Under the pieces are notes generated by a model. That model saw only the letters and a list, made by a program, of their open reading frames with translations. It was not told the origin of the DNA and ran no database searches. Positions 23,766 through 59,624 of a DNA stretch of 64,000 bases are shown piece after piece. The position numbers were made by a program, and so were the translations under genes. This stretch comes from Eubacteriales bacterium (GTDB taxonomy: Bacteria > Bacillota > Clostridia > Oscillospirales > UMGS1783), in contig JAZQIZ010000009.1 of NCBI GenBank assembly GCA_045541395.1, positions 20,302 to 84,301 of the forward strand, written 5' to 3'. Positions within the stretch are counted from its first letter, which is position 1. Each line of letters begins with the position of its first letter.

Positions 23766-23799
23766 GAAAAACCGACTTGTTTCGACAAGTCGGTTTTTC
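23766..23799 (+). terminator. Terminator-like hairpin directly after tRNA CCA
   Basis: Perfect 15-bp stem gaaaaaccgacttgt-ttcg-acaagtcggtttttc. Confidence 0.8.
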
Positions 23800-23801
23800 A
23801 A

Positions 23802-23973
23802 TGAAATTCGCCTTACGGCGAGTGAAATAGCTACACTATGAAATACGCTTTCGCGTATGAAATATTTGCTTCGCAAATGTTTAAGAGGCGAATTTTATTT
23901 CACTTTCTGCCTTAGCAGAAAATTTCATAATCCGTTAGGATTATTTCATATCGAGCATAAGCGAGATATTTCA
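23802..23973 (+). repeat. tRNA-associated 4xTGAAAT/4xATTTCA multi-hairpin element, copy 1
   Basis: TGAAAT at 23802, 23823, 23839 and 23858; ATTTCA at 23897, 23922, 23943 and 23968; separated by short hairpins. Confidence 0.85.
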
Positions 23974-24048
23974 TTTAATGAAAAATTTGTAGTGGTTCAA
24001 ATATATAGGTCACAAATTCAAAAAGGTTCGAAATTGTGCTCTCTTTCC

Positions 24049-24085
24049 ATAAAAACAACACCTCCTGCAGGTGTTGTTTTTTTAT
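24049..24085. terminator. Terminator-like hairpin
   Basis: aaaaacaacacct-cctgc-aggtgttgttttt. Confidence 0.6.
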
Positions 24086-54854: not shown

Positions 54855-56411
54855 TTAATCTTCTTTATAACATTCAAATATTTCGTCAACACGTTGCTGC
54901 TCTTTTTCTTTGTTTTTGGTTAACGCACTTATAGCCGGAACAACTATCATCGAAACCGCCATTGCACATACGCCCATTTCAGGTGACTTAGATGCCGCAG
55001 TGGCAAAGTCTGAAGTAAGGGTTATAGCAAGTGTTGAAATACCAATAGTAAGCAAACCTGCTATCATGCCTGAAATTGCACCTATTTTTGTGGTCTTTTT
55101 CGAAATAATGCCCCAAATGTACGGGCCAATAAAGCAACCGGAAACAACACCCCAGGAAAAGGACATAAGACTTACTATAATAGGTATGTTCTGTGTTGCA
55201 AATATAAATGAACAGGCAATAAAAGCCAAACAAAGCAGTCTTGTTATCATAACCTGAGAATCGGGCTTTATGGGCTTTTTCCTTAAGGAAGGAATAAGGT
55301 CAATAGAAACTGCCGATGCAGAGGTAAGAACAACCGCCTCTAATGTAGACATAGAAGCCGCAAGAAGCAGTATCATCATGATTGCAAATAAAATCATTCC
55401 AAACGTCTGATTGCCCAATACCTTAATAAGTAAAGCCGGAATAACCGAGTCAATTCCGCCTTCGGGAAGCTGCCCGCCAAGTATAAGCCTGGATGTGCTG
55501 CCAATAAGGTATGCACCGCAACCTATGATCGCGCAGAAAATAGTTGAAATAACAGTGCCGCGCTTTATTGCTGCGGTATCTTTAATGGCGTAGAATTTGC
55601 CTAACATCTGAGGCAGCCCCCAGGTGCCAAAGCTTGTAAGCATAATATTGAAGCAAAGGAACTTAAAGGAGGAACCACCGAAAATGCTGGTTAACTGTTT
55701 TCCTGTAGTAGGCATAGGATCGTTGGGAAGTGGTTCAAAGTTTCTAAGGTTCTCTATAAGTCCTCCAATACCGCCAACACTTTCGTGGTTAAGCACAGTT
55801 ACAATAAGGCAAATAACGCCTACTATCATAATAATGCCCTGTACAAGATCTGCGTAAGCAGAAGCAACGTAGCCGCCTATTACAAGGTATATGGCAGTTA
55901 AACAAGCAATAATAAGCATCCATACCCAGGTCTCAACACTGGGAAATACAGAGCTGAATAATGCGCCGAGTCCCTTATATACTGCGGCAGAGTAGGGAAC
56001 AAGGAATACGAAAATAATAATTGCCGCGCCTATTTTCATTGCCTTGGAATTGTATCTCTTTTCAAAAAATTCGGGCATAGTCTTAGTGTTAAGTTTTTTT
56101 GTTATCTTTCTTGTACGGTTTGCAAATAACAGCCAGGATAGTAAGCAGCCAAGCACTGCATTGCCAATGCCGATCCATATTGCGCCAATGCCTATATTCC
56201 ATCCGTGCTGACCTGCATATCCAACAAAAACAACCGCTGAAAAATAGGTGGTTCCGTATGCAAATGCTGTCATCCAGGCACCAATGTTCCGTCCGCCAAT
56301 AAGAAACCCGTCTAAGGTTTTGGATCTTCCGTAGCTGATACAGCCAAGAAACGCCATTACAACGGCGTATGCACATAGTGCAATAATTGTGTAAAGTTGT
56401 ACGTTGTTCAT
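54855..56411 (-). CDS. Sodium:solute symporter (PutP/SSS family)
   Basis: F.IGGR, WIGIGN, GG..A....D.VQG, GLPQ and AASMST motifs; about 13 TM helices. Confidence 0.9.
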   Translation of the reverse strand: MNNVQLYTIIALCAYAVVMAFLGCISYGRSKTLDGFLIGGRNIGAWMTAFAYGTTYFSAVVFVGYAGQHGWNIGIGAIWIGIGNAVLGCLLSWLLFANRTRKITKKLNTKTMPEFFEKRYNSKAMKIGAAIIIFVFLVPYSAAVYKGLGALFSSVFPSVETWVWMLIIACLTAIYLVIGGYVASAYADLVQGIIMIVGVICLIVTVLNHESVGGIGGLIENLRNFEPLPNDPMPTTGKQLTSIFGGSSFKFLCFNIMLTSFGTWGLPQMLGKFYAIKDTAAIKRGTVISTIFCAIIGCGAYLIGSTSRLILGGQLPEGGIDSVIPALLIKVLGNQTFGMILFAIMMILLLAASMSTLEAVVLTSASAVSIDLIPSLRKKPIKPDSQVMITRLLCLAFIACSFIFATQNIPIIVSLMSFSWGVVSGCFIGPYIWGIISKKTTKIGAISGMIAGLLTIGISTLAITLTSDFATAASKSPEMGVCAMAVSMIVVPAISALTKNKEKEQQRVDEIFECYKED

Positions 56412-56449: not shown

Positions 56450-56728
56450 AAAATAAAAAAACTCTGTATTCCTATAATGAATACAGAGGACGATCTTAGC
56501 CGTGGTACCACCTCAGTTTACCGCGCCTTCACAGGTGCGGCCTTTTCAAGTGTCTAACAACACTCTTGTTCTGTTACGGGAACTCCCGTTGCAGCCTACT
56601 TAATTATTTGTTCGGTGCACTGCTAACAGGATGTATTCAGAATTAAACTCCCCATTGCCTTTCACCAGCCGGCAACTCTCTGAAGGCTCGTTTAAAACCT
56701 ACTTGTTCCTGCTCAAACGCATTTCATG
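56450..56728 (-). promoter_or_regulatory. T-box riboswitch leader, probable Tyr (UAC) specifier
   Basis: On the minus strand: AGTA, AGAGA and GGTGAA stem I motifs, GAA-TAC-A specifier (56633-56635), T-box AGGTGGTACCACGG (56500-56513) and terminator 56455-56488. Confidence 0.9.
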
Positions 56729-56771: not shown

Positions 56772-57083
56772 TTAAAATTTTTTGCCGAATTTATCAAGGT
56801 CGACTCTATAGTCAATTACCTCAATTCCTTCATTTTCAAGCCGTCTCTTTTGCTCTTCTATACCACCGAAGGCATAATTTCGGCTTAAATTACCGTTTCG
56901 GTCAACCACCTTATAGCAGGGGAATTTATCACCGTCAGGGTTAAGGTGTAAAGTATTTCCTACAGCACGGGAATAATTCTTATTCCCCAAAAACCTTGCC
57001 AGTTCCCCGTATGTCACAACTTTTCCGTAAGGTATCTCAGTTAAAAGCCTGTATAATTCTTCTTTAAAAAAACCGTTTCCCAT
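56772..57083 (-). CDS. MGMT/Ogt family DNA alkyltransferase, single domain
   Basis: IPYGKVVTYGELA, RAVG, PCYKVV and LENEG motifs. Confidence 0.85.
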   Translation of the reverse strand: MGNGFFKEELYRLLTEIPYGKVVTYGELARFLGNKNYSRAVGNTLHLNPDGDKFPCYKVVDRNGNLSRNYAFGGIEEQKRRLENEGIEVIDYRVDLDKFGKKF

Positions 57084-57202
57084 TTTTTAACCCTTCTTTC
57101 AAAAGAAAAGATATTGTATTGTGACAAGGTCTTTCTTGCGAAAGACTGACCAAACGGAGCAGAATCGAGGTAAGAGTAAGCAAAAGTAGCGTACATAGCA
57201 GA

Positions 57203-57751
57203 TTATCTCTTAACAATTGGAATCGTGAACGAAGACCCTAGTTTATCTTCAAAAAACAGCAAAGATAAATCTTCACTTGCGCCATACAAATACAAATCAG
57301 AATACATTGATTGCCATTTTTCTCGTTGTAACTCCGTCGTTTGCATAAGAAGATTATATGCTTTGTCACATCGGCTTATCCACAAATCATGATACAGGGA
57401 ATTTGATATAATCCTATTCTTCAAGTCAGACACAGAATGTATTTTGAAACGCTCACACCATACTATATCATTTTTATATAGCATTTGACCGGTTGCAGAA
57501 GTAACGATGTCGTCTAAATCGTATACAATAGGTACCATATTAACCCCCATCGTATATGCAAGAAATGCTCTGCTGTGACCATCAGTTAATGTCAGGCTAT
57601 CGTTCCCGAAATCGTGGACGGGTAAAGGATCAAAATTACTTAAATCGGAAGGGTTAAACCAACTTCTAATATTAGTTAACTTATCTTCGTTTAAAAAGAT
57701 TTGGCTCACACCTAAATCAGCAACAGGAAAATATTGTATCCCGTTAAACAT
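57203..57751 (-). CDS. Hypothetical protein with ParB/sulfiredoxin-like N-terminal motif
   Basis: L..SQ.FL...K, PLPV and LTDGHSRAF motifs; ATG overlaps the upstream stop (TAATG at 57749-57753). Confidence 0.6.
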   Translation of the reverse strand: MFNGIQYFPVADLGVSQIFLNEDKLTNIRSWFNPSDLSNFDPLPVHDFGNDSLTLTDGHSRAFLAYTMGVNMVPIVYDLDDIVTSATGQMLYKNDIVWCERFKIHSVSDLKNRIISNSLYHDLWISRCDKAYNLLMQTTELQREKWQSMYSDLYLYGASEDLSLLFFEDKLGSSFTIPIVKR

Positions 57752-58095
57752 TATTTGTTCTCCTTTGCGGTGTTGATGGAGGCAATCAAAATGCGGCGGA
57801 TTGTACCGCATTGGTTGAAAAGGTCAACAGCGGTTTCTCTGTCCAAAATATCGGATTTTACAAACAGTTCCAACCAATATTCCGTTTCGTAGCATTCCTT
57901 CAAGGCAATCTGCAGTTTTGCAATGAAGTCAGGCTTTCCGTGAGCATAGTTTGCTTCGTGGATGTTTGCGCCAACGGAGGTTGCAGAGCGTTCCAACTGA
58001 TTAACGAGGGAATAATGGCCTTTGATATTTTCGCAAAGTTTGATAATTTTAACTGCAAAGTCTGTTGAAAGTTTCCGAAGTTTAGATTCTGCCAT
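57751..58095 (-). CDS. Four-helix-bundle protein (23S rRNA-IVP / Avd-like family)
   Basis: QLERSATSVGANIHEA and FIAKLQIALKECYETEYWLEL family signatures; AAGGTGG RBS. Confidence 0.9.
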   Translation of the reverse strand: MAESKLRKLSTDFAVKIIKLCENIKGHYSLVNQLERSATSVGANIHEANYAHGKPDFIAKLQIALKECYETEYWLELFVKSDILDRETAVDLFNQCGTIRRILIASINTAKENK

Positions 58096-58119
58096 ATAAG
58101 CACCACCTTGCTTATTGCA

Positions 58120-58147
58120 ATTATACCATATCGATTAGAATATTCAA
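58120..58147 (-). promoter_or_regulatory. SigA-type promoter for four-helix-bundle gene
   Basis: Minus-strand TTGAAT-16 nt-TATAAT with an extended TG; the -35 lies 2 bp from the last box of the hairpin element. Confidence 0.6.
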
Positions 58148-58149
58148 AG

Positions 58150-58319
58150 TGAAATATCCTTTGGATGTGAAATAATGACCTGCGGTCATTGTGAAATATT
58201 GCGTCTTTGCCGCAATGTGAAATGAAATTTGCCTACATTCGCGTCAGCGAATATTTCACATGTACGAAGTAAATATTTCACAGCGGAGCTGTTTCACTTG
58301 CCCGTCAGGGCAAATTTCG
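58150..58319 (-). repeat. tRNA-associated 4xTGAAAT/4xATTTCA multi-hairpin element, copy 2
   Basis: On +: TGAAAT at 58150, 58168, 58192 and 58218; ATTTCA at 58253 and 58275, GTTTCA at 58291, ATTTCG at 58314; hairpins between boxes. Confidence 0.85.
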
Positions 58320-58321
58320 TT

Positions 58322-58364
58322 GAAAAGAACCCACACTTGTCGTAGACAAATGTGGGTTCTTTTC
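58322..58364 (-). terminator. Terminator-like hairpin directly after tRNA CCA
   Basis: On the minus strand: gaaaagaacccacatttgtc-tac-gacaagtgtgggttcttttc. Confidence 0.8.
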
Positions 58365-58441
58365 TGGTCGGAGTGGCGGGATTTGAACCCGCGGCCTCTT
58401 GGTCCCGAACCAAGCACTCATACCAACTGAGCTACACCCCG
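58365..58441 (-). tRNA. tRNA-Pro(CGG)
   Basis: Minus strand CGGGGTG...CTTGG-TTCGGGA-CCAAG...GGTTCAAATCC...CACTCCGACCA; 77 nt. Confidence 0.95.
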
Positions 58442-58515: not shown

Positions 58516-58725
58516 CTATTTTCGGAAAAGTCTATTAAGGCGATTGGAAAGAGCGGCCTTGCGCTGCTCAGTTGCATTGATATCTACAGCAATATGTTCA
58601 CCGTCAATTATCAGCACATCGCCTTCCTTTGCATCGGCAGGAAGCATATCTCTTGAAAGTGTAATGATACCGTTTTCGGTTTCAATAATTGCGGCCAGGC
58701 CTTCAAATCTGTCTAAAATATTCAT
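58516..58725 (-). CDS. DUF3006 family protein
   Basis: LDRFEG..A.IE and LP..AKEGDVL motifs; usual neighbour of the ComEC-like MBL gene. Confidence 0.85.
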   Translation of the reverse strand: MNILDRFEGLAAIIETENGIITLSRDMLPADAKEGDVLIIDGEHIAVDINATEQRKAALSNRLNRLFRK

Positions 58726-58727
58726 GA

Positions 58728-59624
58728 TTAATACTCCGTTTTAACGTCTATGATCTTACCGTCGGATGTAACAGTAACCGTTCCCTGTTCGTCGGTACGG
58801 TATATCTTTGCGTTGGCATTCTCAAATCTGGACATTGCCTCCCAATGAGGGTGACCGTAATCATTATCAACACCGCAGGAAATAACAACTATTTTGGGGT
58901 TAACCCTACCCATAAATTCCTCGCAGGAGGAGGTACTACTTCCGTGATGGCCTGCTTTAAGAACATCGGCACTTATATCTCCCTCAATAAGAAGTTCCGA
59001 TTCCTTTTCGGCATCTCCTGTAAACAGGAATGAGTTATTCCCGTAAGTAAGCTTACAAACTACCGACCACGCATTATGATCGTCACCATACTCTTCTGCA
59101 TATTCGGCAATAGGGGAAAGGACAGTCATTTCAAGGCCTTCCTCATTAATTATTTCCACACCGGCTTCTGCCTTGAAAACCTCCGCTCCGTTCAATTCAA
59201 GAGCATCAAGCATCTTTTCAAAGGTTTTTGTGGTTGCGGTATCTTCAGGCAAATAAAAGTTTTTTACAGGGAATGTGTTAAGTACACCATCCATACCGCC
59301 AATATGGTCCTCATGGGGGTGAGTTGCGATCACGTAATCAATTTCTTTATAACCAAGCTCCGCTATGTAATCAATAACCGTTTGCTCTTGTGAGTTGGTA
59401 CTTGCATCAATAAGCATTGTGCGTTTTTGGGGTAATTCAATAAAAATGGCATCACCCTGATCTGCATTTATATAATGGACCGCAAGGGTATCTGTTAAAC
59501 CCTGAGCAACCTCATTTTTCTCGTTTTCCTCAATTTGAGTCATAACGTATGAAGCGATCGCAAGTATTATTACAAGTATTATAGATAATATTTTTTTCTT
59601 TTGAGCTTTAGTTAACTGAGCCAT
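58728..59624 (-). CDS. ComEC/Rec2-type MBL-fold hydrolase, membrane anchored
   Basis: QGDA, THPHEDHIGG, FTGDAE, GHHGS, NDYGHPH and RTD..GT motifs. Confidence 0.88.
   Translation of the reverse strand: MAQLTKAQKKKILSIILVIILAIASYVMTQIEENEKNEVAQGLTDTLAVHYINADQGDAIFIELPQKRTMLIDASTNSQEQTVIDYIAELGYKEIDYVIATHPHEDHIGGMDGVLNTFPVKNFYLPEDTATTKTFEKMLDALELNGAEVFKAEAGVEIINEEGLEMTVLSPIAEYAEEYGDDHNAWSVVCKLTYGNNSFLFTGDAEKESELLIEGDISADVLKAGHHGSSTSSCEEFMGRVNPKIVVISCGVDNDYGHPHWEAMSRFENANAKIYRTDEQGTVTVTSDGKIIDVKTEY

Follow-up and report, generated by a model that had tools for sequence, protein, structure and literature searches.

A candidate recombinase-less cassette that joins an inverted Gut-1 hairpin array to an Avd-like four-helix gene at the CCA end of a tRNA gene in a gut Clostridium

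The DNA analyzed here is a 64-kb stretch (the window, to which all coordinates refer unless another contig is named) of the genome of an uncultured gut Clostridium (Eubacteriales), which is 97.5% complete. Beginning exactly at the CCA end of a proline tRNA gene it contains what, by its sequence, is a 1.2-kb recombinase-less cassette composed of a terminator, a hairpin array, a promoter, a four-helix-bundle gene, a cargo gene and a tail. A second array (copy 1) is found elsewhere in the window. The features are:

58365..58441 (−), tRNA-Pro(CGG), the docking site; the unit begins right after the tRNA CCA
58323..58364 (−), terminator (A-tract, hairpin, T-tract), immediately 3′ of the CCA
58149-58322 (−), whole array: four forward and four or five reverse 7-base boxes with hairpins between them
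58248..58322 (−), left arm of the array, Rfam Gut-1 (RF01706); boxes 58314-20, 58291-97, 58275-81 and 58253-59, hairpins in between
58149..58228 (−), right arm of the array, inverted; boxes 58222-28/58217-23, 58191-97, 58167-73 and 58149-55
58103..58147 (−), promoter-like site (consensus match only) and Shine-Dalgarno sequence (58109-58103)
57751..58095 (−), four-helix-bundle gene, 114 aa, PF05635/TIGR02436
57760..57768 (−), GCAAAGGAG word in the last codons of the four-helix gene; cargo ribosome-binding site and apparent cargo exchange point
57203..57751 (−), cargo gene, 182 aa; predicted N-terminal ParB/Srx fold, conserved TDGH motif
57137..57188 (−), tail A, a conserved, unstructured right end of 52 nt finishing in CGCA; begins 14 nt past the cargo stop
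23799..23974 (+), array copy 1, behind tRNA-Arg(CCG) and its terminator
23986..24081 (+), tail B (ending CTTTCCA at 24049) and terminator, closing copy 1

The promoter-like site matches the sigma-70 consensus, with TTGAAT (58147-58142) as the −35 region, a 16-nt spacer and a TG-extended TATAAT (58125-58120), and the cargo gene overlaps the stop of the four-helix gene by one base. These two genes are the only ones in the 1.2 kb; neither a recombinase nor transfer genes are present. Four fixed joints can be recognized from the sequence: between CCA and terminator, terminator and array, Shine-Dalgarno word and cargo, and cargo stop and tail. The terminator is likely part of the unit, because the same hairpin is found behind other tRNAs in other genomes and, at locus L085, as a direct repeat flanking a whole unit. 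An earlier, sequence-only reading had bounded the unit at 57203..58364 and had correctly placed the element, the promoter, the two genes and the tRNA-Pro, 3′ of which the unit indeed lies; the right end at 57137-57188 falls outside those bounds. That reading also put the array next to the −35 region, as is the case, the gap being one base rather than two (the last box ends at 58149).

The repeated-box pattern occurs four times in the window, all inside the element, against 0.05 expected, and the element folds strongly with its terminator included (z = −9.7 as DNA, −8.6 as RNA). The Rfam Gut-1 model (gathering cut-off 50 bits) scores the left arm at 61.1 bits and copy 1, at 23799, at 58 bits; the right arm gives a weaker match of 48 bits on the opposite strand. 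By these scores the hairpin element consists of two inverted copies of Gut-1, an orphan motif of Rfam with which the earlier reading had not connected it. Gut-1 was described in 2010 as a non-coding RNA candidate from the human gut, without an assigned function, and Table 1 of that paper rates its RNA structure as certain (Weinberg et al. 2010, PMC2864571). Sixteen Gut-1 matches occur in the genome; they form inverted pairs at nine loci, of which seven come immediately after a tRNA terminator and two do not follow tRNAs. Among 150 other genomes sampled across the phylum, two contain Gut-1. Two further arrays, with the word GATGATAT and divergent arms, are missed by the model; they lie behind tRNA-Asn and tRNA-Leu terminators on contigs C14 (near 17373) and C26 (near 78).

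Examination of the spacers between boxes reveals that 302 of 367 pair from first to last base (4.6 in shuffles), or 180 of the 238 distinct spacers. Looping out the hairpins leaves four 7-base boxes in direct succession in each arm; in duplex the boxes are 16-31 bp apart with no helical phase. Read on the strand that gives the reverse box, 225 of the 302 loops have G as their first base and A as their last. That strand differs between the two arms, so that each strand carries such loops in its 3′ arm. Seventy-one left-arm loops are GCTNCGC, which cannot be the c(UNCG)g RNA loop and is the complement of the GCGNAGC mini-hairpin, a structure that is very stable in DNA. Against a DNA reading, 56 of 141 left-arm loops are also compatible with c(UNCG)g, and stem mismatches favor the sense strand (nine G-T, two A-C). 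The 5′ stem is also able to pair with the array center in 62 of 65 elements. On balance the array looks like folded DNA, with a strand-symmetric, DNA-like loop preference, and quite probably folds as single-stranded or extruded DNA from which the hairpins loop out, leaving four contiguous 7-base boxes per arm.

The four-helix protein exceeds the cut-offs of both family profiles (TIGR02436/PF05635: 99 bits against 24 and 88.6 against 33.8; E values of 2e-28 for TIGR02436 and 4e-25 for PF05635), which bears out its earlier assignment to the four-helix-bundle family. It is 40% identical to Bacteroides thetaiotaomicron BT_0352 (2RLD), which consists of five chains, and 2RLD is also the top structural match of a poor single-sequence model (pLDDT 67). 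The protein is not clearly basic (16 K/R, 15 D/E) and its gene is under purifying selection (median pN 0.10, pS 0.83, uncorrected, over 79 pairs). Avd, the accessory protein of diversity-generating retroelements (DGRs), is described as a structural relative of PF05635 (PMC10053308), and all five of its protomers are reported to contact an RNA stem-loop and hold flipped-out bases (10.1101/2023.10.23.563531). By analogy with 2RLD and Avd, the four-helix protein is likely a ring of five subunits and is predicted to bind nucleic acid.

This precedent also invites the view that Gut-1 is a true RNA after all, a read-through or promoter-driven transcript that would bind the Avd-like ring as DGR spacer RNA binds Avd, with movement and gene capture through a reverse transcriptase acting in trans. 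Its listing as a certain RNA structure, the protomer contacts of Avd, the sense-strand bias of the stem mismatches and the gene-precise borders of the cargo would all fit. We consider it very unlikely, as there is no reverse transcriptase in the genome or among the 88 of 152 large downstream open reading frames (ORFs) scanned beside homologues, the array sits downstream of a terminator and upstream of a promoter, and the loop preference is the same on both strands. Nor was a template/variable repeat pair, as in a DGR, found among the 20 largest repeat families listed for the window.

Enrichment of the element near four-helix genes had been proposed from the sequence and is now seen at two levels. 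In the genome itself an array immediately precedes each of the two TIGR02436 genes (2/2), and, among the best 80 of 555 homologues (79-93% identical), an array is found upstream of all 73 that are assessable, 70 full and three partial, seven having too little upstream DNA. A tRNA lies within 450 nt in 53 of these best 80, and 25 different tRNA species are represented. In 31 related genomes, which are kin and not independent, TIGR02436 is present in all 14 with at least five Gut-1 matches, absent from ten of the 12 without Gut-1, and mixed in the five with one or two matches.

A family survey covered 122 loci across the order, 120 of them with a match; the box words were chosen with the loci already in view, and the tree was built by a quick method. 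In 74 loci the array is of the hairpin type and uses one of five words; in 34 it consists of plain 7-base tandem repeats, placed upstream of the four-helix gene or flanking it, and 12 loci are unassigned. On the tree of the 74 genes the box word changes six times, against 37 or more in 200 shuffles, and the host family 46 times; on the quick tree of four-helix loci array architecture (hairpin versus plain tandem) changes twice. The box word, by this measure, follows the clade of the four-helix protein. Since array and gene are inherited together, the tree shows one lineage moving between hosts and not binding. The tandem-heptamer members sit between ordinary genes, with neither tRNA nor tail, and the protein-array pair thus does not need the recombinase route considered below. 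Looped out, the hairpin array would have the geometry of these plain tandem arrays; from this shared 7-base geometry and the Avd precedent we predict that the Avd-like protein binds the boxes, probably with a clade-specific preference. A box-bound ring may act as a helper for transfer or recombination of the unit and is probably also its own repressor, given that the last box abuts the −35 region.

The cargo protein matches no Pfam family at cut-off. Its predicted structure (pLDDT 96) gives Z 9.9 to Atu1540 (rmsd 3.8, 106 residues aligned) and Z 8.1 to sulfiredoxin; the top eight of 48161 chains are ParB/Srx-fold proteins (Z 9.9 to 5.8), and the next row scores 4.1. The best Foldseek E value is only 1e-3, and feature matches in the Atlas are to ParB_N. 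As modeled, the protein has a ParB/Srx core fold. The earlier description of a coupled ParB/Srx-like gene holds in its fold and its stop overlap; as a fixed partner of the head, that is, the array, promoter and four-helix gene, it had to be abandoned, for its family follows none of the best 80 of 555 homologues. The converse, a cargo family tied to the four-helix gene, was likewise rejected. The family has 120 relatives among 177 candidates, and only one of 19 other loci has a four-helix gene upstream, a distant one with a four-base overlap; four lie behind tRNA-Tyr without such a gene, and three near-identical ones behind a serine recombinase. At loci L201-L205 and L209 the ParB/Srx-like domain is the C-terminal part of longer proteins (240-367 aa) with an extra N-terminal domain.

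What follows the four-helix gene is variable. Among the best 80 of 555 homologues, 54 have a downstream ORF (one a parsing artefact), and these fall into 48 families; the stop overlap is four bases in 30, one in four and eight in two. Where the last codons hold AAGGAG a coupled gene follows in 35 of 43 loci, and where they do not, none follows in 31 of 36. Seven pairs share cargo among 203 four-helix genes with enough downstream DNA, and in three of the seven, representing two cargo families, the cargo genes are 93-94% identical behind heads that are 60-61% identical. The identity begins at the GCAAAGGAG word, and near-identical cargo also occurs behind different tRNAs. From these comparisons the GCAAAGGAG Shine-Dalgarno word is the apparent point of cargo exchange. 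The small mobile unit with variable cargo, as first proposed, is supported by the 48 families and the swaps between heads. The evidence leans toward cargo being swapped by recombination between short shared anchors, namely the Shine-Dalgarno word and the tail, and expressed by translational coupling.

Variation at the tRNA-Pro locus itself had also been anticipated, and was found. The tRNA-Pro was located in three of five relatives searched, one of which has other inserts and half an array of another word, and two no array. In public metagenome contigs, the four-helix gene and the flanks are matched at 98-99% in two runs whose depth falls to 0 over 57312-57613; two others contain joints from 57188-57189 to 57754-57758, that is, at both cassette borders. 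The sides of these joints are 22-28 letters long and may stem from other organisms, and a hole in contigs alone proves little. One further run has the cargo and tail at 98% with different DNA beyond.

The position of the last box and the short shared word at which cargo swaps start would also suit a simpler scheme, in which the array is an operator, the unit an expression platform and the four-helix protein a repressor or tuner of its own promoter; spread would be by host homologous recombination between resident copies only, and recombinase islands would merely share the tRNA hotspot. Among the 73 assessable homologues (best 80 of 555), 68 have a −10-like word after the array, and TTG directly follows the last box in 19. 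This scheme appears unlikely: box spacing without helical phase suits looped-out DNA better than a duplex operator, many units consist of array and tail without promoter or gene, and homology does not explain the first arrival at 25 tRNAs at a fixed joint.

The right end was recognized through high metagenome depth at 57130-57190, which pointed to tail A. This sequence occurs in 24 of 301 genomes of the order, and all 23 others carry TIGR02436, compared with a base rate of 138 in 300; across the class a variant appears weakly in three of 349 genomes. It starts no more than 17 nt past a stop in 22 of 28 measurable cases (40 tails), is followed by a terminator in about 21 of 29 loci read by eye, often with another array after that, and in 11 of the 29 has a four-helix gene upstream within the DNA retrieved. 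Tail A has no Rfam match and does not fold on either strand, its mean DNA fold energy being about −1 kcal/mol. The idea that it is the cut-off coding end of a recombinase was not supported, the pN/pS being 0.6-1.3 across six frames with no codon periodicity.

The genome has three tails that end in CA before a terminator (A, B and C), alignable only at their last bases. Tail B stands at the end of copy 1, of the C27 array and of the C28 unit, the last with a four-helix gene and GNAT cargo, while tail C closes the array at tRNA-Ser. Copy 1 had been described as a solo form. It does lack a four-helix gene and is not a bare array: the array is followed by tail B and a terminator, which makes it an empty array-plus-tail unit. 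Truncated four-helix genes also occur before tails. Tails B and C share a TTCGAA-centered word. In tail B copies (L344, L347, L130 and window 23986-24049) one antisense frame is open in most, with synonymous-looking changes, and looks more protein-like than the frames of tail A. A recurring short motif, about TTCCAATTTGTC.AACAG, lies between cargo stop and tail at L287, L295, L297, L027 and L335, and possibly marks another cassette pool.

A link to recombinases was found through tail C, whose pattern occurs in 42 of 251 genomes, 33 of them with TIGR02436. Among the 31 loci examined, the feature directly inside the tail is a hairpin array in 14 and a tandem array in two; one has a four-helix gene with cargo, seven have other genes, and in three a tRNA lies there with little between. 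In the remaining four a large serine recombinase is found at the tail: as triplets in G104, about 70 nt before the end of the tail, and in G077, as one visible gene in G227, and in G188 as the same gene end, cut by the contig. These four genomes gave no TIGR02436 match. In some tail C islands the recombinase and the tail are separated by cargo. The contigs stop short of the left ends of the recombinase islands. At L386 a single recombinase gene ends in CCA, followed by terminator, array, tail C and terminator. At L085 the recombinase frame continues across CCA and terminator to a stop codon within the first box, and a full unit with tail A follows; a second copy of the terminator, 43/44 identical, forms a direct repeat around the whole unit. 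It may be that the recombinase genes at L085 and L386 did no more than insert ahead of a unit that was already there. Among the loci examined no recombinase gene stands directly before tail A, to which the link runs via tail C and the CCA joint. The only large serine recombinase of the genome shares just 22-28% identity with the recombinases found at the tails.

A serine recombinase requires no more than two bases in common at its crossover site, which fits the CA that tails and tRNA ends share. In our preferred reading the unit is a recombinase-less cassette, likely moved at the tRNA CCA by large serine recombinases acting in trans, with a four-helix protein predicted to bind the boxes; we give this a probability of roughly 0.55. 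Tail and terminator would probably form the attachment site of an excised circle that recombines at the CA shared by all tRNA ends, by which units could reach many tRNAs and stack. We infer the enzyme from recombinase genes that end at the same joints in relatives; no excised circle or exact empty site was observed in the sequences examined, and no mobility genes occur in the 88 of 152 downstream ORFs of at least 200 aa scanned (downstream only; best 80 of 555 homologues).

The units might also be decay products (CIMEs) of larger serine-recombinase islands, in which case array and gene would be a selfish insert in their own right, settling behind terminators and hitchhiking, and the cassette would have lost its mobility as a unit. 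That tail C forms the end of full islands, in some of which cargo separates it from the recombinase, would agree with this, as would the truncated four-helix genes before tails, the two arrays of the genome that are not behind tRNAs, and the heptamer-flanked family members without tails. The same minimal layout is nevertheless met repeatedly in many host families, in combination with three tails and five box words, the genes are intact and under purifying selection, and near-identical cargo stands behind different heads and tRNAs; decay is therefore an improbable account.

Among known systems the closest to the preferred cassette are serine-recombinase islands at the 3′ ends of RNA genes. The Dehalococcoides ssrA islands are reported to have a DsiB gene overlapping its site and to stack when module-less (PMC3146451), the streptococcal ICEs to have triplet serine integrases and repeats of 2-8 bp (PMC4701971), and CIMEs offer a parallel for module-less integrative elements (PMC5704250). 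As those accounts describe them, the islands share with our loci stacking, module-less members, a recombinase frame crossing the joint and very short direct repeats. They differ in repeating a 20-bp tRNA fragment where only CA is repeated here, in using one target where here many tRNAs and tmRNA are used, and in lacking the stereotyped head and gene-precise cargo slot. CIMEs are similar in having no recombinase or transfer genes of their own. Our unit has fixed CA/terminator joints at both ends and ends that also occur on recombinase islands, with no repeated tRNA fragment and no recombinase assigned to tail A. Integron cassettes resemble it in their single promoterless genes, borders at the ribosome-binding site and just past the stop, and a fixed promoter, with the GNAT cargo on C28 as a further likeness. 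They differ in that no integron integrase lies beside any unit examined or among the ORFs scanned, tail A is not a palindromic attC, and there is one cargo slot instead of an attC array. The three tyrosine recombinases of the genome are far from the arrays, two of them being adjacent, convergent genes on contig C1 (238745-239879). Unlike REP/BIME elements with RAYT, the genome has no Y1 transposase (PF01797). MITEs are defined by terminal inverted repeats and a target-site duplication; the array here is an inverted pair, with no exact empty site among the sequences examined.

The relationship to Gut-1 rests on a left arm above the gathering cut-off, gut origin and the lack of a known function, whereas the model describes three hairpins of one arm and the array here is two-armed, 174 nt long and placed after terminators. 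It also has sister words that the model does not detect, loops of the DNA type and an associated gene family. By both profiles the four-helix protein belongs with the stand-alone PF05635/TIGR02436 proteins such as BT_0352 and the 23S rRNA intervening-sequence ORFs. Unlike them and DGR Avd, the protein here is paired with a 7-base array whose word follows its clade; unlike the 23S rRNA intervening sequence, the window has no rRNA match and the site is a tRNA 3′ end. A search of the open-access literature, with subscription journals outside its scope, found no paper on a Gut-1/PF05635 array-gene pairing or on such cassettes. Taken as a whole, the unit is a variant form of the recombinase-less islands known from tRNA ends, and no counterpart of its head has been described.

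A bolder extension, which we offer tentatively, is that this is an undescribed gene-capture and delivery system of gut Clostridia: a minimal satellite that uses borrowed serine recombinases to dock at any tRNA CCA, exchanges its cargo with gene precision behind a promoter and ribosome site of its own, in the manner of an integron, and places a sequence-specific Avd-like ring on a folded-DNA array of 7-base boxes. Three orphans would meet in it, namely Gut-1, function-less since 2010, a widespread family known from structures only, and the excess of 7-base repeats in bacteria, which has been called little studied (PMC4692102). If true, it would give a first function to Gut-1, to stand-alone PF05635 proteins and perhaps to that excess. 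The unit offers a short, named candidate ligand for the four-helix protein, and five words against five clades make specificity testable crosswise. The array data are a reason to reclassify Gut-1 as DNA, and the unit also supplies candidate enzymes for the joints. It may be a common route for small accessory genes without a mobility gene of their own among uncultured gut Clostridia, and a recombinase that accepts many tRNA ends would interest genome engineers.

Searches beyond cellular genomes gave no match to the unit in plasmids and none to the tails in viral contigs with five exact patterns. RNA sequencing runs contain only 5-11% of the sequence words of the window. The viral contigs gave 12 array-pattern matches, four of them chance by eye; in two the array adjoins a tyrosine integrase and a fragment of a tRNA, as would be expected of host DNA bordering a prophage. 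A k-mer count in the 2.5 kb downstream of the homologues (best 80 of 555) found nothing general by way of a shared motif.

Several neighbors deserve mention. Immediately past tail A, at a place where only a short hairpin is left of the usual terminator, window 56772-57083 (−) encodes a stand-alone methylguanine-methyltransferase DNA-binding domain (PF01035); it is probably outside the cassette, since it is covered in the runs that lack the cargo. Next to it a T-box leader (56483-56726, −; 108.9 bits) precedes a 518-aa transporter-like gene (54855-56411, −). Upstream of tRNA-Pro, 58516-59624 (−) holds a ComEC/Rec2-like metallo-beta-lactamase-fold gene and DUF3006, in the same order as in relative G003, and three tandem paralogous genes with long direct repeats occupy 193-2900. 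Other repeated modules, some with partial tRNA copies, lie behind tRNAs on contigs C2 (26330-28830), C8, C14 and C24; those on C2 adjoin the only large serine recombinase of the genome.
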